Shown here: positions 7,003-41,680 of the stretch, one piece after another
Numbering within the stretch: position 1 is the stretch's first letter
Layout: every line of letters begins with the position of its first letter
Assembly: GCF_024298765.1 (NCBI RefSeq)
Contig: NZ_CP101210.1
DNA from: Escherichia coli
GTDB lineage: Bacteria; Pseudomonadota; Gammaproteobacteria; Enterobacterales; Enterobacteriaceae
Strand: one strand, 5' to 3'
Length of the DNA: 64,000 bases
Notes under the pieces: generated by a model
Databases searched by the model: none
Told to the model about the DNA's origin: nothing
Seen by the model: the letters and a program-made list of their open reading frames with translations, nothing else
Position numbers and translations under genes: made by a program

Positions 7003-8397
7003 TCAAAAAAAGTATTTGAAACGTAATCGGGCACCGTAACGATCATCGGTAATGTCACAATTACTATATCTACAGTTACTATCCAGAATTGAGTAATAAG
7101 CCCCGAGGTAAATATTAAAGTTCTCCATATCCATCACATTAGCAAACTGATAAGATGCATGAATGGTGTGAATGTTGTATATTCCTTCACCATCAATCCA
7201 GCAACCATTATTACACACGACACCACTAAATTCATCAATCTTATTATGTGCGTAGATATAACCCAGTTCGAAACGTTTCCACAGAGCATTAATACTGGCA
7301 GTGAAATCTTTCTCATTACTGGCATCCAAATAGGCGGTATTAAGAGTAACCACGATGCCATTTTCCGGATCTGTTTTCAGACCGTTCCATGTCATGCTAA
7401 TACCATAACCGGAACGATTGGACTGATCGACAAAATTCCCCTTATTATCGGTATAGCCATAAGCATTTTTTACCACGTTCGCTTCCATCGCTGCGGAGAC
7501 TGTGAATTCTTCCGTTGGCGACCAGGCAATTACCGGGCGCAGATAAGCGACATTTTTCTGCTGCTCCATATATCGTCCATGATAATTACCGTTATTATAT
7601 AAAGATGTTCCGTCTTCAAGTAACGTGTTTAACTCAAAATACCAGTTATCGAGTTGTTTACTGATGAGGAAATTACCACCAGCGTCAGAACGACCGCGTC
7701 CCTCTTTCATCATATAGATATAACCACGGCCATCAGCATAAATATCATTAGCTGTATTACCGGAATACTCAATGAAAGTATCCTGATTTAGAGGGAACAT
7801 ATCGTAAGCTTCAAAACGACCGACTTTCACTTTCCACTCGTCATCTTTTCCAAAAAAGAATAATGCATCATCAATATTCACTGAACCGTGCATATCCGCC
7901 AGTGGTTGTGCTGAAAATCCAGCGAAATAACCATTATCAAGCTTACGGGTACCGTCAAAACCTAATAGAATACGGCCATTAAGGTCCCACCGTTCATTCA
8001 CTGACTCACTGTTCGCCCCGGAACTTATCATTACTAACTGACCGGGTTTACTGGCAGCATCTATATTAAACTCCACATCACCATAAAACTTCAAATCATT
8101 GTAACCAGAGAGCAGAAAACCTGGAGAAGATGTTTTTTCTTTTGTTGACTCAACTACTGCATAGCTGTTAGCATCTTTTTTATTCTGCTCTGAACTAATT
8201 TGACGTATTTCAGAATGTTGTTCTATATCAAAACTCTTTAACATTCTTTCTGCTTTTTCCGCCCTTTTTTCTGCAGCTTCCAGGCGTTCTTCCAGCAATG
8301 CCATTCTTTGTTCAAGCGTTAGCCCCCCTGTTTTTGCTGCACACGCATTGTATTCCAGTAATAAAAAAAGAGATAAACCCAAAAGTAACTTATTCAT
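7003..8397 (-). CDS. rafY: Outer-membrane glycoporin, RafY-like (raffinose porin)
   Basis: 464-aa ORF with signal peptide, coiled-coil N-terminal extension, C-terminal ...RFKYFF; sits downstream of rafD as in the plasmid raf operon; AT-rich relative to rafABD. Confidence 0.6.
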   Translation of the reverse strand: MNKLLLGLSLFLLLEYNACAAKTGGLTLEQRMALLEERLEAAEKRAEKAERMLKSFDIEQHSEIRQISSEQNKKDANSYAVVESTKEKTSSPGFLLSGYNDLKFYGDVEFNIDAASKPGQLVMISSGANSESVNERWDLNGRILLGFDGTRKLDNGYFAGFSAQPLADMHGSVNIDDALFFFGKDDEWKVKVGRFEAYDMFPLNQDTFIEYSGNTANDIYADGRGYIYMMKEGRGRSDAGGNFLISKQLDNWYFELNTLLEDGTSLYNNGNYHGRYMEQQKNVAYLRPVIAWSPTEEFTVSAAMEANVVKNAYGYTDNKGNFVDQSNRSGYGISMTWNGLKTDPENGIVVTLNTAYLDASNEKDFTASINALWKRFELGYIYAHNKIDEFSGVVCNNGCWIDGEGIYNIHTIHASYQFANVMDMENFNIYLGAYYSILDSNCRYSNCDITDDRYGARLRFKYFF

Positions 8398-8591
8398 TTT
8401 ACCCCCTTAAATAAAAACAAATGTGGGTACTCTTATATTCTCTGTATCAACACAAAATACCATTCATATTCTTCACCAGACTGGTATATATAATCGCAAC
8501 ACATTACCAAAAGCACACAGCAAAGATAATTAATGTGTACTGGCAAAGTAATGACAGATAATGTCAGAAAAAATACTGATATCGATATGTC

Positions 8592-10022
8592 TCAGGTCAG
8601 CATCCATAAAGTGCCATCAGTTAATATCGCATCGCCATGAGCGGCATATAACGATAATTGTCTCGAGTCCGCTTGCGGATAAATACGACTTGATAAGGTT
8701 GCCTCACCATCGTTAACAAACACTTCAACAGATGAACGATCCAAGAAAATACGAAGAGTCAGATATTCTGTATCAGGAAGTTCAACACTGCGGTAACCAT
8801 CCAACCCTTCCTCAGGGTAATAGCGCCACAGTACCAGTCGCCCGGCCTGATTATCCACATAAAGTCGCAGACCGTCTCCAAGGCGGACGCCATAGTGCTC
8901 CGCATGACTGTCAACCGTATGCCACGTCACCAATAATTCTGCGGCCTGTACATTTTCGGTCAGTAATTGCAAACCCTGTAACCTTACAGGGGATAATGGC
9001 TGGCATTTTTTGCGCAGAGATTCGACTTCACGCACAGGTCGCTGGCACAGCCGGCCATCGCGCTCAAAAACCTCTCTGGGCAGCGTCAGACATCCTGCCC
9101 AGGCTTCACTGCGGGTGGGCACGGGTGAATCCCACATATTCATCCATGCCATAATGATACGCCTGCCGTCCTCAGCCAGCATGGACTGTGGAGCATAAAA
9201 GTCATGACCATAATCCAGCTCTTCAAATCCCCCTTTCAGCGCAAAGACAGAACCAGGCTTCCAGCTCCCTGCCAACACACCGCTCTGAAAAAGGTTACGG
9301 AACCGATAACCGGAAGGGGGCATCCCCTGTGGTGAGAACATCAGCCAGTGAAAATTACCACACCTGAAGAAATCGGGGCATTCCCACATATAACTTTTTC
9401 CGGCTGCGGAATGAGCAAGAACATGCTCCAGATGCCAGTCCCGCAAAGATGTCCCGCGATACAACAGAACTTGCCCATTGTCAGAAGCGTCCCGGGCACC
9501 AATGACCATCCACCAGGAGCCGTCTTCGTGCCAGACTTTGGGATCACGGAAATGCATTATACCTTCCGGAGGTGTCAGCACACAGCCCTGCTTCTCAAAG
9601 TGAATACCATCATGACTTGTAGCCAGACACTGTACTTCACGGATAATGCTGTCATTACCACGATCATCGAGACAAATATGACCAGTATAAATAAGTGATA
9701 GCACGCCATCATCATCCACGGCACTCCCTGAAAAACAGCCATCACGATCATATTTATCTCCGGGTGCCAGCGCGATAGGTTCGTGTTGCCAGTGCAACAT
9801 GTCGGTACTGGTGGCATGCCCCCAGTGCATTGGCCCCTGATATGCGCTTGCAGGATGATGCTGGAAGAACGCATGGTAACGCCCATTGAAGTAAATAAGG
9901 CCATTTGGATCATTCATCCAGCCGGCAGGTGGAGCCAGATGAAAAATCGGGTACCAGGCATTACCACGACGTGCGCAAAGTTTTTCAAGGGCAGACTGTG
10001 CCAAAGCAAGACGCTGTTTCAT
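8592..10022 (-). CDS. rafD: Raffinose invertase / sucrose hydrolase (GH32 beta-fructofuranosidase)
   Basis: 476-aa ORF with GH32 motifs WMNDPNGL, FRDP and ECP; start overlaps the rafB stop (TGATG). Confidence 0.85.
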   Translation of the reverse strand: MKQRLALAQSALEKLCARRGNAWYPIFHLAPPAGWMNDPNGLIYFNGRYHAFFQHHPASAYQGPMHWGHATSTDMLHWQHEPIALAPGDKYDRDGCFSGSAVDDDGVLSLIYTGHICLDDRGNDSIIREVQCLATSHDGIHFEKQGCVLTPPEGIMHFRDPKVWHEDGSWWMVIGARDASDNGQVLLYRGTSLRDWHLEHVLAHSAAGKSYMWECPDFFRCGNFHWLMFSPQGMPPSGYRFRNLFQSGVLAGSWKPGSVFALKGGFEELDYGHDFYAPQSMLAEDGRRIIMAWMNMWDSPVPTRSEAWAGCLTLPREVFERDGRLCQRPVREVESLRKKCQPLSPVRLQGLQLLTENVQAAELLVTWHTVDSHAEHYGVRLGDGLRLYVDNQAGRLVLWRYYPEEGLDGYRSVELPDTEYLTLRIFLDRSSVEVFVNDGEATLSSRIYPQADSRQLSLYAAHGDAILTDGTLWMLT

Positions 10023-26970: not shown

Positions 26971-27978
26971 GTGAAAAAGCAATGGATTGTTGGTACGGCG
27001 CTGCTTATGTTGATGACTGGTAATGTCCGGGCAGATGGTGAACCGCCAACTGAAAATATCTTAAAAGATCAATTCAAAAAGCAGTATCACGGCATTCTCA
27101 AGCTTGATGCCATCAGCTTAAAAAATCTTGATGCTAAGGGTAATCAGGCCACCTGGTCAGCGGAAGGCGATGTCTCTTCCAGTGACGATCTCTATACCTG
27201 GGTCGGTCAGTTGGCAGATTACGAACTGCTCGAACAGACCTGGACGAAAGATAAACCGGTAAAATTCTCGGCGATGTTAACCAGTAAAGGAACGCCCGCT
27301 TCTGGCTGGTCGGTGAACTTTTACTCTTTTCAGGCGGCAGCCAGCGATCGTGGGCGGGTGGTCGACGATATCAAAACGAATAATAAATATCTGATCGTGA
27401 ATAGCGAAGATTTCAATTATCGCTTTAGTCAGCTTGAGTCTGCGTTGAATAACCAGAAGAACTCGATTCCTGCGCTGGAAAAGGAAGTGAAAGCGCTTGA
27501 TAAGCAAATGGTGGCGGCGCAGAAAGCAGCGGATGCATATTGGGGAAAAGATGCAAACGGTAAGCAAATGACCCGCGAAGACGCCTTTAAAAAAATTCAC
27601 CAACAGCGTGATGAGTTTAATAAACAGAATGATAGCGAGGCGTTCGCGGTTAAATATGACAAAGAGGTTTATCAACCGGCGATTGCGGCATGTCATAAAC
27701 AGAGTGAAGAGTGTTATGAAGTGCCGATTCAGCAGAAGCGAGATTTCGATATCAACGAACAACGGCGACAGACTTTTCTGCAATCACAAAAACTTAGCCG
27801 TAAATTGCAGGATGACTGGATAACGCTCGAAAAAGGGCAATATCCGTTAACGATGAAAGTTTCAGAAATAAACAGTAAAAAAGTCGCGATTTTGATGAAA
27901 ATTGACGATATCAATCAGGCTAATGAACGCTGGAAAAAAGACACCGAACAACTGCGGCGCAATGGGGTGATTAAGTAA
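26971..27978 (+). CDS. yggM: Uncharacterised periplasmic protein YggM
   Basis: 335-aa ORF with signal peptide; recognised by sequence and synteny. Confidence 0.7.
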   Translation: MKKQWIVGTALLMLMTGNVRADGEPPTENILKDQFKKQYHGILKLDAISLKNLDAKGNQATWSAEGDVSSSDDLYTWVGQLADYELLEQTWTKDKPVKFSAMLTSKGTPASGWSVNFYSFQAAASDRGRVVDDIKTNNKYLIVNSEDFNYRFSQLESALNNQKNSIPALEKEVKALDKQMVAAQKAADAYWGKDANGKQMTREDAFKKIHQQRDEFNKQNDSEAFAVKYDKEVYQPAIAACHKQSEECYEVPIQQKRDFDINEQRRQTFLQSQKLSRKLQDDWITLEKGQYPLTMKVSEINSKKVAILMKIDDINQANERWKKDTEQLRRNGVIK

Positions 27979-27996
27979 CTCATGTTAAGTGCCTTT

Positions 27997-28034
27997 GCCG
28001 GATAATATAAAAAGTTATCCGGCAAATTATTTTT
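27997..28034. terminator. Hairpin plus T-run between convergent yggM and TRAP permease gene
   Basis: GCCGGATAA-tataaaaag-TTATCCGGC then AAATTATTTTTT. Confidence 0.5.
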
Positions 28035-29335
28035 TACATTAGCCCTAGTAGCTGTGGAATGAACAAGGATATTTGCGGGATGTAAGTGATCATCATCAAC
28101 GCGATTAACAATGCGGCATAAAATGGCAGCAATGGTTTGATCAAATGTTGAATCTTCACACCTGAAATAGAACAACCAACAAATAGCGCACTACCCACCG
28201 GCGGTGTTAACAGCCCAATACAAAGGTTAGCCACCATCATAATACCGAAATGTACCGGATCCATTCCCAGCTCTTGTGCAATCGGCAAGAAGATTGGTGT
28301 GAAGATTAGTACAGCCGGTGTCATGTCCATAAAGATGCCGACAATTAATAAGACGATATTAATCAGCAGCAATATGATCAGTGGGTTATCAGAAATCCCC
28401 ATCAATGCGTCGCTGATCATATAAGGAATATCAGCATTGGTCATTGCCCAGGACATGCCCACGGAAAAACCGATCAACAGTAATACAATCGAAGTGGTAA
28501 CAACCGATTCCAGAATCAGTTTGGGTAAATCGCGCCATTTTACTTCCCGGTAAATCAGCACCGAGAGAATAAATGTGTAGACAACGGCAATTGCTGACGC
28601 TTCAGTTGCGGTAAAAATGCCGCCCAGAATGCCGCCCATTACAATGAACACCAGAAGCAAACTTGGTAAGGCATCCAGAAAAGCTTTACATGCCTGAGCA
28701 AAGGTTGCTCTTTCTGAAAGTGGGTAGCCACGGCGTTTAGCAATAATGCCGCAGACTATCATTACCGCGAGACCCATTAAGATCCCTGGCAAATATCCCG
28801 CCATAAATAACGATGCTACAGAAACGCCGCCAGCTGTCAGGGAAAACACAATTAACACGTTTGAGGGCGGTATCAGTAATCCAGTAATACAAGATGAGAC
28901 GTTTACAGCGGTAGAAAATGCCGGATCATAACCTTCTTTGGTCTGAATGGGATTCAGTGTGCCACCAACGGCAGCAGCTGCCGCAACGGCTGAACCAGAA
29001 ATGGAACCAAACATCATATTCGCCAGGACGTTCACATGACCAAGCGAACCAGGAACGCGGCCAACCATTACCTGGGCGAGGTTAATCAAACGTATCGCAA
29101 TACCGCCGCTGTTCATCAGTGTTCCGGCAAAGATGAAAAAGGGGATTGCCAACAGGGCAAAGTTATCCAGTCCATTAGCCAATCGTTGCGAAACAGTGAT
29201 TGCCGCGATATCCCAGGGAAACATCAACAGCATTGAAGCTACAGTCGCAATAGCGATTGAGAACGAAATGGGCACACCAATAAAGACCAGCACAAAAAAA
29301 CAGTCAAACAGTGTAATCGCGATATAACTATCCAT
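28034..29335 (-). CDS. TRAP transporter large permease subunit (DctM family)
   Basis: 433-aa polytopic membrane protein with DctM-like organisation; stop of upstream gene shares nucleotide 29335. Confidence 0.8.
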   Translation of the reverse strand: MDSYIAITLFDCFFVLVFIGVPISFSIAIATVASMLLMFPWDIAAITVSQRLANGLDNFALLAIPFFIFAGTLMNSGGIAIRLINLAQVMVGRVPGSLGHVNVLANMMFGSISGSAVAAAAAVGGTLNPIQTKEGYDPAFSTAVNVSSCITGLLIPPSNVLIVFSLTAGGVSVASLFMAGYLPGILMGLAVMIVCGIIAKRRGYPLSERATFAQACKAFLDALPSLLLVFIVMGGILGGIFTATEASAIAVVYTFILSVLIYREVKWRDLPKLILESVVTTSIVLLLIGFSVGMSWAMTNADIPYMISDALMGISDNPLIILLLINIVLLIVGIFMDMTPAVLIFTPIFLPIAQELGMDPVHFGIMMVANLCIGLLTPPVGSALFVGCSISGVKIQHLIKPLLPFYAALLIALMMITYIPQISLFIPQLLGLM

Positions 29336-29847
29336 TAACTGGCCTCCTGCGCAGGTTGTTTCAGTTGTTGAATGCTTTGATTAATAAAACACAAGGCATA
29401 AAACATCATCACCACTCCACTTAATGGCAGAATGATATATACGTATCCCATCGGTATTTGCATTGCGGCAGATACCTGTGATGTTGCCAGTGTTTTATCA
29501 ATTAATTTCAGGCCACCAGTCACAATGACCGAACCGGCAAAACCTAAAATAAGAACGTTAATGACTATACTAAGAAGTAATTGCTTGCGCTTATTCAGGG
29601 CGAGAGCAAATAAATCGATAGAGAGATGTCTCTGCGCGCCGACGGTATATGCAGCACCTAATAATCCTACCCAGATCATCAAAAAGCGTGCCAGCTCATC
29701 GGTTAATGTACTTGGCTGGTTAAGTACGTAGCGGCTAAATACTTGCCAGACTACGCATACAACCAGAGCAAGCATTACGGCGACAGAAAACGCGGCAATG
29801 ACGCGGTCTACCGCAAGTTTCAGGCGGTTAAATATCATTGTAAGCAT
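29335..29847 (-). CDS. TRAP transporter small permease subunit (DctQ family)
   Basis: 170-aa protein with four hydrophobic helices, placed between SBP and large permease genes. Confidence 0.7.
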   Translation of the reverse strand: MLTMIFNRLKLAVDRVIAAFSVAVMLALVVCVVWQVFSRYVLNQPSTLTDELARFLMIWVGLLGAAYTVGAQRHLSIDLFALALNKRKQLLLSIVINVLILGFAGSVIVTGGLKLIDKTLATSQVSAAMQIPMGYVYIILPLSGVVMMFYALCFINQSIQQLKQPAQEAS

Positions 29848-29882
29848 CCTGGAAAATCAGGGCCAGAGACTGGCCCGAAATA

Positions 29883-30869
29883 TTATTGAGCAGCGTTGTC
29901 GAATTTCTCTAACAAAGCAGCTTGTTTTGGATCTTTTTTGAAGTCGTCAAACAGAGGTTGAACTGCGGCACGGAATGGGGCTTTATCAACCTTAACGATT
30001 TCACCACCCATAGCTTTCGCCTGAGCACGTGTGTCAGCGTCAATTTTTTCCCACAATTTTTGTTGATAAGCTTCGGATTTCTTCGCCGCTGTTTCGAGGA
30101 TTTGTTGCTGTTCTGGGGTTAATTTATTCCATGTTTTGGTGGAGATAACCAAAAAGTCAGGAATTGAGGCATGTTCATCTTCAGAAAAGACTTTGGCAAT
30201 TTCGATATGTCGAGTCTGCACCCAGGAAGGCACGTTATTTTCTGCGCCATCTACTACACCTTGTTGCATCGCAGTATAAACTTCGCCAAATGAAATTGGA
30301 GTGGGTGAGCCACCCATCAGTTCAATCATTTTGATGGTGGTCGGGCTTGGCTGAACACGAATTTTCAGCCCTTTAAGATCTTCTGGCTTAGTAATCGGTT
30401 TTTTCGCATAGAAACTGCGAGTACCCGCTACATAAGCTGATAAAGCAAAAAAGCCTTTATCTTTTGTTGAATCCATAATTTCTTTACCAACTTCACCAAA
30501 AACCACTTTGTTGAAGTGCGCCTGATCTTTAAATAAGAACGGCAAATTATAGATAGCATAAATATTATCAAAAGACTCCAGATCACTGGCGGAACCTTTG
30601 GTCATATCCAGTGCACCATTTTGCAACAACTCCATAGTTTCTCGCGCATTACCCATCTGGCTGCTGGGGTAAATACGGATCACCATATTACCTTTTGACA
30701 GCTGTTTTACTTCTTTCGCCAGCTCTTCAAAACTCTGATGTACAACATGACTTCTTTCCAGGTTGTGTGCTAACTTTAACGTCACTTTTTCTGCGGCGTT
30801 TACGCCAGTGCTAACCAGAGCCAGCAAGGATGCGCAGACTAATGAGCGGGTAAATGACCTCATTTTCAT
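29883..30869 (-). CDS. TRAP transporter substrate-binding protein (DctP family)
   Basis: 328-aa ORF with signal peptide; DctP-like size and features; first gene of dctPQM-like operon. Confidence 0.8.
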   Translation of the reverse strand: MKMRSFTRSLVCASLLALVSTGVNAAEKVTLKLAHNLERSHVVHQSFEELAKEVKQLSKGNMVIRIYPSSQMGNARETMELLQNGALDMTKGSASDLESFDNIYAIYNLPFLFKDQAHFNKVVFGEVGKEIMDSTKDKGFFALSAYVAGTRSFYAKKPITKPEDLKGLKIRVQPSPTTIKMIELMGGSPTPISFGEVYTAMQQGVVDGAENNVPSWVQTRHIEIAKVFSEDEHASIPDFLVISTKTWNKLTPEQQQILETAAKKSEAYQQKLWEKIDADTRAQAKAMGGEIVKVDKAPFRAAVQPLFDDFKKDPKQAALLEKFDNAAQ

Positions 30870-31136
30870 AAAAAAACTCCCTGTTGAAGAATGGAAATTG
30901 GTTGATATCTAATTGTGCTTATCAGTGCTTTGTGCGACAAATTGGTTAACCTGTCTGACAACTTGTCTATGTTTATCACAACTTGAAATAAAGTCAGAAA
31001 TTAAATATTAATTTTGTGCGCCAGGTTGTACATGTTTATAATCAATAAATGATGAGTAAATATTCACTAAATATATATAATAAATATCGTCGATATTTAT
31101 TCTGTAAGAAATATATTTTTGCCGAAGTTAATTAAC

Positions 31137-31150
31137 GGGGGGGGGGGGGG
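31137..31150. repeat. Homopolymeric G14 tract (C14 on the TRAP-operon coding strand) in AT-rich intergenic region
   Basis: Direct reading: ...ttaacGGGGGGGGGGGGGGtaaaag...; about 270 bp upstream of the TRAP SBP start, 40 bp downstream of the hemW stop. Confidence 0.9.
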
Positions 31151-31189
31151 TAAAAGAAGTGATTAATGCGCCCGCAGGCGCATTAATGA

Positions 31190-32326
31190 TTACTCAGCGA
31201 GGAATAATTCAAGAAGTGAGTTTAAGAATAATTTACCATGCTCGGTTATCTGCCAGTAATCCGCACATTCTGTGAGATAACCCTGAGCGATGGCCTCGTC
31301 TAACTGAGAGCGAATAACTTCTTCAGAAAGGCCAGTATACTGGCTAAACTCCACGCGCGGCGCGGCCTCCAGCAGACGGAAGCGATTCATAAAGAACTCA
31401 AACGGCTTATCTGCGGCTTCGACATCACGCTGGCTTTCCAGATACCTTCCTTGCATAAAACCACGCGGATGACGCGTTTTGGTGGTACGCAGAATGCGCC
31501 CATCCGGGAAGGTCACTTTGCCGTGCGCGCCGCAGCCAATACCGATGTAGTCGCCAAATCGCCAGTAGTTGAGATTGTGCTGGCACTGATAACCTGGTTT
31601 GGCGTAAGCGGATGTTTCATACTGCTGATAGCCCGCTGCGGTTAATAACTGATGCCCCTGTTCGAAAATATCCCACAGCGCGTCATCGTCCGGCAGTACA
31701 GGAGGGCGCGAGCCAAACAGCGTATTAGGTTCGATGGTCAGTTGATACCAGGAAAGATGCGGCGGATTCAGTTCAATGGCCTGGCGCAGATCGCCAAGCG
31801 CCTCTTCCAGTGATTGATCCGGTAGCCCATGCATCAAATCGAGGTTAAAGCTACGTAACCCTAAACCGCTCGCCAGATTTGCCGCTCGTTTCGCTTCTTG
31901 CGGGCCATGAATGCGCCCAAGTCGTTTCAGCTTTTCTTCGCTAAAACTCTGCACGCCAATGGAGATGCGGTTCACACCAGCACGCTGATAATCAACAAAG
32001 CGATCGGCTTCTACCGTACCAGGGTTCGCTTCCATAGTAATTTCTGCATCCGCTGCCAGCGGCAAACGCGCACGCACGCCGTCCAGCAGCGTTTGCATCG
32101 CCGGGCCGGAAAGCAGGCTCGGCGTACCACCGCCAATAAAGATTGTCTTTACTTCACGGCCCTGAGCGTAAGCCACATCGTTGTCCAGATCGTTAAGCAG
32201 ATGCTGAACATAATCGTCGTGCGGCACTTCTCCTTTCAACGCGTGAGAGTTGAAATCGCAGTACGGGCATTTCTGTACGCACCACGGGATGTGAATGTAG
32301 AGACTCAGCGGCGGTAATTTAACCAT
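31190..32326 (-). CDS. hemW: Heme chaperone HemW (radical SAM family, formerly YggW)
   Basis: 378-aa ORF with CxxxCxxC radical-SAM motif ([10 protein letters not shown]); synteny with rdgB. Confidence 0.85.
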
Positions 32327-41299: not shown

Positions 41300-41680
41300 G
41301 ATGCCCTCCAATATGGTTATTTTTTATTGTGAATTAAGATAGGTGAGTACGACGTAAAAAGATGTGAAGCAAATCACATCAGTGTAATCGCTTACACTAA
41401 CATTTATCTTGGTTATGATTTAAGTGCATGAAAATAATTGAGTTATATCATCATAGATTAAACGCTGTTATCTGCAATTAAGACTTTACTGAAAAGAAAT
41501 GTAACAACTGTGAAAACTGAATAATAATATGAAAATATTACAAATATTTGGCTGGTGTGGTTGGTGTAATCGGTTTCAGTAATGATGATAATTTGCGGTA
41601 AAACGTGTTGAGGAAGAATGATGTTATTGTGCGGGCGGTTTTTTTGCCGGATGCGGCGTGAATGTCTATCCACCGCGGTG

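Follow-up and report, generated by a model that had tools for sequence, protein, structure and literature searches.

In the textbook view of Escherichia coli, which was shaped by strain K-12, hexuronates are taken up only by ExuT, a hexuronate:H+ symporter of the major facilitator superfamily (MFS) controlled by ExuR and CRP, and the single tripartite ATP-independent periplasmic (TRAP) system is YiaMNO, which handles 2,3-diketo-L-gulonate and is encoded at a separate locus with its own catabolic genes and regulator. Glucuronate from host glucuronides and galacturonate from pectin are real carbon sources in the gut, and TRAP systems import their substrates through a DctQM membrane complex that is driven by an ion gradient and is independent of ATP. 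The TRAP binding protein STM3169 of Salmonella Typhimurium binds D-glucuronate with a Kd of 0.17–0.25 µM (PMC7660916). Among binding proteins of solved structure, 4N91 (Apre_1383) binds D-glucuronate, 4MHF (Bpro_3107) binds D-glucuronate and D-galacturonate, and 4N15 (Bamb_6123), the template for the glucuronate-binding model, is counted as a glucuronate/galacturonate binder (PMC7660916). Here we analyze a dctPQM operon located between yggM and hemW on the minus strand, at 28034–30869, of a 64,000-nt stretch of E. coli DNA (contig NZ_CP101210.1; hereafter the window, to which all coordinates refer unless another locus is named). Taken as a whole, our results make it fairly likely that this operon encodes a functional, ancestral TRAP system for scavenging hexuronates that is wired to the existing hexuronate repressors. 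Our literature search found no paper on this locus, and comparative genomics of UxuR and ExuR may already list the operon in other genera.

Identity and organization of the hemW-linked operon

The ORF list of the window contains three co-directional minus-strand open reading frames (ORFs) between yggM and hemW. The dctP-type gene (29883–30869) encodes a periplasmic substrate-binding protein of 328 amino acids (aa) that scores 285.7 bits against TIGR00787 (cut-off 175) and 255.5 bits against NF037995, and whose N-terminus resembles a signal peptide ending in ...GVNA|AEK; PF03480 is present on all DctP homologues. The dctM-type gene (28034–29335) encodes a large permease of 433 aa (471.8 bits against TIGR00786, cut-off 268; RefSeq WP_000378929.1, 'TRAP transporter large permease') that is 89–95% identical at the aa level to its orthologues in other genera. 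The dctQ-type gene (29335–29838) encodes a small permease of 167 aa by the RefSeq start, with the longest ORF starting at 29847, and its stop codon overlaps the dctM start codon. DctQ itself gave only a weak NCBIfam match, to the YiaM model (38 bits); its orthologues, 76–81% identical, carry PF04290, and RefSeq names it 'TRAP transporter small permease'. The window DNA is 100% identical to that of the avian strain STE15, in which RefSeq annotates a TRAP large permease, small permease and substrate-binding protein. Reading frames were intact in every full-length copy of the operon examined, and the evidence as a whole leaves little room for doubt that the three genes form an intact TRAP uptake system.

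A preliminary description of this DNA had recognized a dctP-dctQ-dctM-like operon with no associated enzyme or regulator gene. The TIGR00787 and TIGR00786 scores above cut-off and the RefSeq names bear out the first part, and so does the adjacent gene content for the second, as neither the ORF list nor the RefSeq annotation places an enzyme or regulator gene beside dctPQM. Routine annotation describes the operon only as a 'TRAP transporter'. It shares its transporter class and subunit organization with YiaMNO, but the two are distant paralogues (296 bits against the YiaN model, cut-off 800; 38 against the YiaM model, cut-off 260), and the hemW-linked operon lacks the catabolic genes and regulator that accompany YiaMNO.

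Distribution and origin of the operon

The operon was initially described as inserted between genes that adjoin each other in K-12. The adjacency itself is correct: in K-12 MG1655 the operon is absent, and yggM (DUF1202; plus strand, 26971–27978 in the window) and hemW (minus strand, 31190–32326) are separated by only 154 bp. A set of 5,426 complete E. coli genomes has the flanks in 5,425 cases and the operon in 1,458–1,460 (~27%). Because the flanks are near-universal and the operon is not, it is accessory within E. coli, and the comparison with K-12 and other E. coli genomes therefore upheld this element of the preliminary description.

Insertion at this site, on the other hand, is contradicted by the recurrence of the hemW-dctPQM adjacency in at least eight other genera (Salmonella, Citrobacter, Pseudocitrobacter, Klebsiella, Kluyvera, Leclercia, Pluralibacter and Phytobacter). 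In a scan of species representatives, hemW-linked operons were found in Citrobacter amalonaticus, C. braakii, C. sedlakii, Pseudocitrobacter, six Klebsiella and six Kluyvera species, Pluralibacter, Phytobacter and one divergent Escherichia lineage, and in Salmonella enterica a minority of strains carries the operon at this position. DctP homologues are 84–94% identical in many Enterobacteriaceae, and the parts of the hemW-linked loci that vary across genera are yggM and ansB, not the transporter. The divergence of the transporter is also that of its flanks. Relative to Salmonella, aa identity is 90% for DctP and 94% for DctM, compared with 91% for HemW, 94% for RdgB and 93% for AnsB; relative to C. 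amalonaticus, it is 94% for DctP and 95% for DctM, compared with 93% for HemW, 93% for RdgB and 95% for TrmB. The nucleotide divergence of the TRAP genes likewise matches that of the flanking core genes, and none of the genera compared offered a potential donor more similar to the E. coli operon than to its flanks. No integrase, insertion sequence (IS), tRNA or direct repeat was found in or bounding the 3.2-kb segment.

The empty alleles of K-12, BL21, O157:H7 and one O6:K2:H1 strain have identical edges and differ only in the number of repetitive extragenic palindromic (REP) units, with 1–3 units each and sizes of 64, 68, 154 and 242 bp among the four strains. We recognized no operon remnants in these four alleles, only chance 8–14-mers. 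The intrinsic terminator hairpin of hemW (ATTAATGCGCCTGCGGGCGCATTAAT, minus strand, 31162–31187), which is kept in Salmonella and Leclercia, is missing from all four. Such alleles could conceivably have arisen by deletion between TTAC motifs located at the stop codons of dctM and hemW. Because of the shared synteny, the flank-like divergence, the lack of mobility genes and the terminator missing from the empty allele, we favor loss in K-12 over gain in the window strain: the operon is very probably ancestral at the hemW locus of Enterobacteriaceae and was lost elsewhere, K-12 carrying a REP-filled deletion allele.

The preliminary description had instead suggested a horizontally acquired islet, inserted in some E. 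coli lineages and silenced by H-NS through an AT-rich promoter. Such an islet would be in keeping with the absence of the operon from K-12 and 73% of E. coli genomes, and with its composition, as the 320-bp spacer upstream of dctP (30870–31189) has 33% G+C and the E. coli TRAP genes are lower in both G+C and third-codon-position G+C (GC3) than their flanks (GC3 of 0.39–0.47, compared with 0.46–0.66 in flanking E. coli genes). The AT-richness of the upstream region is thus real, but it is not a sign of foreign DNA, since the spacer is AT-rich in all five genera compared (33–36% G+C, even where the locus is 55%) and carries conserved operators in them. The operon is also found at other chromosomal sites, among unrelated genes, in Buttiauxella, Edwardsiella, Mangrovibacter and Enterobacillus, so that the module has moved at some time in its history. 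Set against these points are the hemW-adjacent position in other genera, the divergence equal to that of the flanks, the absence of a closer donor or of any mobility or repeat element, the ancestral hemW terminator that the empty allele lacks, and a divergence among E. coli copies (up to ~2.7% at the nucleotide level) that follows lineages; we consider an acquired islet very unlikely. Two points nevertheless weigh against simple vertical descent. The GC3 of the E. coli TRAP genes lies below that of their orthologues in Salmonella, Klebsiella, Kluyvera and Leclercia (0.51–0.81, tracking the host genomes) as well as below that of the flanks, which vertical descent does not explain, and an early loss that homologous recombination later reversed is formally still conceivable.

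Within E. coli, operon-positive strains span distant lineages (O111:H8, O111:NM, O103:H2, O121, O78:H4 and many human isolates). Between the window strain and O111:H8, dctP shows 24 nucleotide and 0 amino-acid differences, and hemW shows 50 and 10, respectively. In the ~27% of genomes that keep it, the operon is under strong purifying selection. Decayed copies with IS1 or IS1414 insertions or truncations also exist, and loss is therefore ongoing. These decayed copies, together with the loss of the operon from most E. coli and its low codon G+C, could be taken to mean that even in the strains retaining it the operon is a decaying, functionless relic. The intact frames of the full-length copies, the wholly synonymous dctP differences between lineages and an operator block that is almost invariant within E. 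coli while the distal spacer varies all argue to the contrary, and we regard a relic as even less likely than an acquired islet. The operon neatly illustrates how absence from K-12 can be mistaken for acquisition.

Substrate of the binding protein DctP

The preliminary description had held that the substrate could not be inferred from the sequence alone. This was too pessimistic, as the homology of DctP, the gene context of its homologues and the operators upstream of the operon all indicate hexuronates. In a sequence search, the closest PDB matches of DctP (E values of 4e-68 to ~1e-50) formed one group, consisting of 4ovr, 4n15/4n17/4ln5, 4mhf/4mij, 4x8r, 4n91, 4n8y and 4xfe, followed by 4pf8, 4ng7/4x04, 4ovq and 4p1l. 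This group came out clearly ahead of SiaP/sialic-acid and C4-dicarboxylate binders in both the sequence search and a PDB fold search, the latter being the only use made of an AlphaFold model of DctP built from a 15-sequence alignment (pLDDT 70, with residues 152–233 poor). Beyond the three documented binders introduced above, the other entries of the group, among them 4OVR, 4X8R, 4N8Y and 4XFE, are probably uronate binders as well.

The residues expected to hold the ligand are shared in part. Alignment with the solved uronate binders showed conservation of R151, R171, E210-N211-N212 and H35-N36, and neither R151 nor R171 varied in the alignment of 15 sequences. R171, together with R151, corresponds to the conserved Arg of 4ovr, 4n15 and 4mhf and to R170/R150 of STM3169. 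DctP thus has the Arg-Arg clamp, the ENN motif and the His-Asn motif in common with Bpro_3107 (4MHF/4MIJ), Bamb_6123 (4N15/4N17/4LN5), Apre_1383 (4N91) and the Xanthobacter protein (4OVR), but differs from these in two positions, where they have Glu in place of its Ala75 and Glu in place of its Asp238 (Asp also in STM3169). Of the STM3169 contact residues N35, Q36, E74, R150, R170, N210 and D237, five of seven are kept in DctP, as N36, R151, R171, N211 and D238.

Homologues with 60% identity in Aeromonas rivuli, A. molluscorum and Pantoea sp. IMH lie in clusters of the arrangement uxaA-uxaB-uxaC<>dctPQM-exuR, in which the TRAP genes occupy the position of exuT in K-12, between uxaC and exuR. 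On the basis of homology, this gene context and the operator content described below, the substrate of the window system is probably a hexuronate, D-glucuronate and/or D-galacturonate. As a separate observation, the Pantoea sp. IMH cluster (locus L053) adjoins yggR-yggS-yggT-rdgB, which is the same neighborhood on the other side of the yggS-hemW string, and the near-identity of the Pantoea and Aeromonas promoters hints at transfer between these two groups.

Several observations weigh against this assignment. DctP is only 36–40% identical to the solved uronate binders; Leu37 and Ala75 replace Gln36 and Glu74 of STM3169, and because two of the seven contact residues differ, its specificity may differ as well; the operon is unlinked to uronate genes in E. 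coli and most Enterobacteriaceae; and our literature search found no report of ligand binding or transport for DctP or a close orthologue. These observations bear on the alternative that the operon encodes a TRAP system for another carboxylate under a FadR-type repressor other than ExuR or UxuR, the candidate ligands being aldonates (D- or L-galactonate), keto-uronates (fructuronate or tagaturonate), unsaturated or rare uronates, and C4-dicarboxylates. With the STM3169 family included, DctP is only 36–46% identical to proven uronate binders, STM3169 itself was thermally shifted by D-galactonate, the operator core of the FadR family is generic, and the orphan context in Enterobacteriaceae is uninformative. 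Nevertheless, the top 14 PDB relatives belong to one group with three documented uronate binders, the Aeromonas/Pantoea homologue is embedded in uxaCBA-exuR, and the operator matches to uxuA, uxaC, uxaB and exuT are specific rather than merely generic. We therefore consider these other ligands, taken together, a serious but rather unlikely alternative to a hexuronate.

Relationship to STM3169 and its E. coli counterpart

STM3169-STM3171 resembles the hemW-linked operon in being an enteric three-gene dctPQM set that is accessory relative to K-12 and belongs to the same uronate-binding group, with the N, R, R, N and D contact positions in common, and both systems would act beside ExuT and the core Ashwell pathway. 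STM3169 has been described as part of a 'Salmonella-specific locus', and its quoted residue numbering fits a 327-aa protein. We considered whether STM3169 might be the hemW-linked protein of Salmonella, which is 90% identical to the window DctP, and rejected this identification on four counts: the mass predicted for the tagged protein disagrees with the published value of 35,741.96 Da; of the seven quoted residues, only five can be matched, with a shift of +1; the C-terminus read from the Haneda primers is ...LEYIENM, and none of the loci contains the primer; and a hemW-linked copy is missing from the species representative of S. enterica.

The E. coli counterpart of STM3169 is instead an accessory island between ygiQ and ftsP, present in UTI89 (locus L069, 41991–49001) and corresponding to 'GR 21' of BEN2908 (PMC12928451). 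Its binding protein in UTI89 has N35, Q36 and E74 at exactly the positions quoted for STM3169 and is 46% identical to the window DctP. In extraintestinal pathogenic E. coli (ExPEC), the island consists of a FadR/GntR regulator, a mannitol-dehydrogenase-family enzyme, a zinc-dependent alcohol dehydrogenase (Zn-ADH), an Ldh-family oxidoreductase and dctPQM. The window strain and STE15 lack it, with ygiQ (6064–8283) and ftsP (8394–9806) being adjacent (locus L067). Counting this second accessory island, the hemW-linked operon and YiaMNO, there are at least three TRAP systems in the E. coli pan-genome.

The two accessory systems are paralogues that differ in their locus (ygiQ-ftsP in E. coli compared with hemW) and C-termini, at the 46% identity given above. 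They also differ in setting: STM3169 is reportedly controlled by ppGpp and SsrB, and its E. coli counterpart has its own FadR-type regulator and three oxidoreductases, whereas the window operon is an orphan that carries ExuR/UxuR-like operators. The window DctP is an uncharacterized branch of the uronate-binding TRAP group, and is a member of neither STM3169-71 nor ExuT.

Promoter and operators upstream of dctP

We aligned the upstream regions of the operon in five genera, and then in ~35 species (at least 12 genera), which revealed a conserved order of an (A)AAnTGTGA box, ~20 bp, operator 1 with the form (A/T)TGTC-N-GACAA, a 12-nt spacer and operator 2, ATGTCATACAG. In the window, operator 1 (AGTTGTCAGACAGGT, minus strand, 30949–30963) is a TGTC-N-GACA palindrome that is found in all genera. 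Operator 2 (ATTTGTCGCACAAAG, minus strand, 30928–30942) is a TGT-N3-ACA site of the GntR/FadR type that reads ATGTCATACAG in most other genera. Their centers lie 21 bp apart, and both operators are conserved at this distance across the ~35 species.

These operators resemble those of the K-12 hexuronate regulon. Operator 1 is similar to AGTTGTATGACAAGT of exuT and ATTGGTACGACAGGT of uxaB, and the operator 2 core TGTCATACA, which is the same as the core of the exuT-proximal AGTTGTATGACAAGT, is the reverse complement of the exuT operator core TGTATGACA. When a weight matrix was built only from TRAP operators of species other than E. coli, operator 1 scored 15.3 bits, the best position in the whole window, and operator 2 scored 11.5 (p = 5e-5 per position). 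The K-12 exuT operator scored 14.1 bits with this matrix (p = 2e-5 per position; ~0.04 such matches expected in the promoter set), and the exuR-linked Aeromonas/Pantoea site scored 12.3 bits. The exuT promoter shares the design of the TRAP promoter, a TGTGA box followed by a TTGT-N3-ACAA operator, and the Aeromonas/Pantoea promoter (TTTTGTGATGGTTCTCAAT...GATGTTATACCAAT) is visibly of the same design as that of K-12 exuT (TTTGTGATGGCTCTCACC...AGTTGTATGACAAG).

Word sharing gave a similar result. Compared with 1,742 bp comprising seven K-12 hexuronate-regulon promoters, the TRAP spacer shared more 9-mers than all 2,000 of 2,000 dinucleotide shuffles, and more 10-mers than 1,999 of 2,000. Few of 392 control windows equaled this word sharing, some of them through 21-nt matches, and the single one inspected holds a REP element. 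REP elements at 41620–41680 of the window and upstream of K-12 uxuR (locus L001, 2580–2733) give the 21-nt matches that dominate the controls.

Two further words link the region to individual K-12 promoters. The box TTAGATATCAACCAATTTCCA (minus strand, 30892–30912) resembles the uxaC-proximal GTTATCACACCAATTTCCAG of K-12, and the 11-mer ACCAATTTCCA is common to this box and the K-12 uxaC-exuT region; within the box, TATCAACCAATTTCCA at 30892–30907 resembles the uxaC-proximal TATCACACCAATTTCCA, and GATAT(C/T)(A/G)ACCAAT is kept in Salmonella, Citrobacter and Klebsiella. Between operators 1 and 2, the 13-mer GGTTAACCAATTT (minus strand, 30939–30951) is identical to one in the K-12 uxuA promoter and is the sole match in the 64 kb with at most one mismatch (0.10 expected). 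The corresponding site lies in the gntP-uxuA spacer, which purified UxuR binds in genomic SELEX (PMC5934670). We rejected the 13-mer as a conserved operator after phylogenetic footprinting, which showed it to be confined to Escherichia and the conserved elements to be the two flanking TGT-N3-ACA palindromes.

The (A)AAnTGTGA box (minus strand, 30965–30980) is a candidate CRP half-site. Its TGTGA is kept in nearly all of the ~35 promoters, and TTTGTGATGGCTCTCACC stands at the equivalent position of the K-12 exuT promoter. Farther upstream, ~50 nt from the TGTGA box, lies another conserved box (ACAACCTGGCGCACAAAAT, minus strand, 31011–31029), which takes the form (A)ACC(C/T)AGCGCACAAAA in most Enterobacteriaceae TRAP loci and whose 9-mer TACAACCTG also occurs upstream of K-12 uxaB. 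This 9-mer and GACAGGTTA of operator 1 make up an inverted repeat whose arms are separated by 12 nt in the K-12 uxaB promoter and by 75 nt here.

The resemblance to the exuT, uxaB and uxuA operators suggests that ExuR and/or UxuR bind these putative operators, and control of the operon by one or both repressors appears likely, with moderate confidence. Some of the evidence pulls in the other direction. The uxuA-type 13-mer is restricted to Escherichia; the candidate CRP site consists of one good half-site and a poor partner, so that CRP binding is inferred only; and a promoter scan detected no match to the sigma-70 consensus upstream of dctP, as would fit a promoter that depends on an activator. 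Moreover, because operators of the GntR/FadR family share a T.GT...AC.A core, another sugar-acid repressor (DgoR, LgoR or another) could conceivably act here in place of ExuR and UxuR.

Proposed role of the operon

In the model that we favor, DctP would capture D-glucuronate and/or D-galacturonate, with the carboxylate held by Arg171 and Arg151, and would pass the sugar to the DctQM membrane complex. The imported hexuronate would then enter the core UxaC / UxuAB / UxaAB - KdgK - Eda pathway, and the lack of an enzyme gene beside dctPQM would follow because the catabolic pathway is encoded elsewhere. As long as hexuronate is absent, ExuR and/or UxuR would repress the operon from operators 1 and 2 and, in Escherichia, from the uxuA-type site as well, and CRP would add catabolite control via the TGTGA box. 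The conserved hairpin after dctP would raise the ratio of binding protein to permease. ExuT has the same predicted substrate and regulon but is a simple permease of an unrelated family, whereas the window system is a binding-protein-dependent secondary transporter that is expected to have high affinity.

We tentatively propose, going a step further, that hemW-linked dctPQM is an unrecognized ancestral member of the ExuR/UxuR-CRP regulon, a high-affinity scavenger beside ExuT whose presence or absence is niche-adaptive. If so, the polymorphism would affect competition in the gut for host-derived glucuronate or plant-derived galacturonate; the operon is kept in O111, O103 and O121 Shiga toxin-producing E. 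coli (STEC) and O78 avian pathogenic E. coli (APEC), and K-12, BL21 and O157:H7 have lost it. In a more daring version of this proposal, Leu37 and Ala75 would retune DctP to a different uronate that ExuT does not take up.

The interest of the locus lies in the revised direction of its evolution and in an orphan accessory transporter that seems to be wired into a core regulon. The locus suggests that the ancestral enterobacterial state had a binding-protein-dependent transporter in the same regulon, probably for hexuronates, and that laboratory strains represent a derived, reduced state. The related STM3169 system affects Salmonella virulence, and a high-affinity uptake system carried by one in four E. 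coli, major STEC and avian pathogenic lineages among them, is a reasonable candidate for a fitness determinant. The practical value of the operon is modest, as it belongs to a well-understood transporter class.

Other features of the locus

The ribosome binding site (RBS) of dctP, GGGAG (minus strand, 30877–30881), lies 7 nt before the ATG, and its GGAG is kept in all genera. An Rfam search of the region returned no RNA element. Between dctP and dctQ, a stem-loop (GGGCCAG-TCT-CTGGCCC, minus strand, 29860–29876) forms a terminator-like site that is kept in Salmonella, Klebsiella, Kluyvera and Leclercia (-13.5 to -18.8 kcal/mol), and is probably a partial terminator or mRNA stabilizer that gives an excess of binding protein. 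A homopolymer of hypervariable length (31137–31150; C14 as read on the minus strand and G14 on the plus strand) separates the hemW terminator from the TRAP promoter region and is situated ~155 nt upstream of the TGTGA box; six Escherichia genomes have lengths of 14, 7, 11, 14, 0 and 5. At the other end of the operon, a REP-like hairpin (GCCGGATAA...TTATCCGGC, plus strand, 27994–28026) followed by a T-run separates the convergent yggM and dctM, and REP units are present at the corresponding position of the empty alleles.

The neighboring yggM evolves fast, with 63% aa identity to Salmonella compared with ~90% for the other neighboring genes. It is absent, or only 33–38% identical, in the Klebsiella, Kluyvera and Citrobacter loci, and in strain Ecol_276 it is split by IS1 (locus L059, 1–1445). 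Finally, short contigs that are 99–100% identical to E. coli hemW-dctPQM occur in the species-representative assemblies of a 'Collinsella sp.' metagenome-assembled genome (MAG; L013), a 'Bacillota bacterium' MAG (L014) and an 'Alicyclobacillaceae bacterium' (L054), and these Gram-positive matches are almost certainly due to E. coli contamination of the assemblies.

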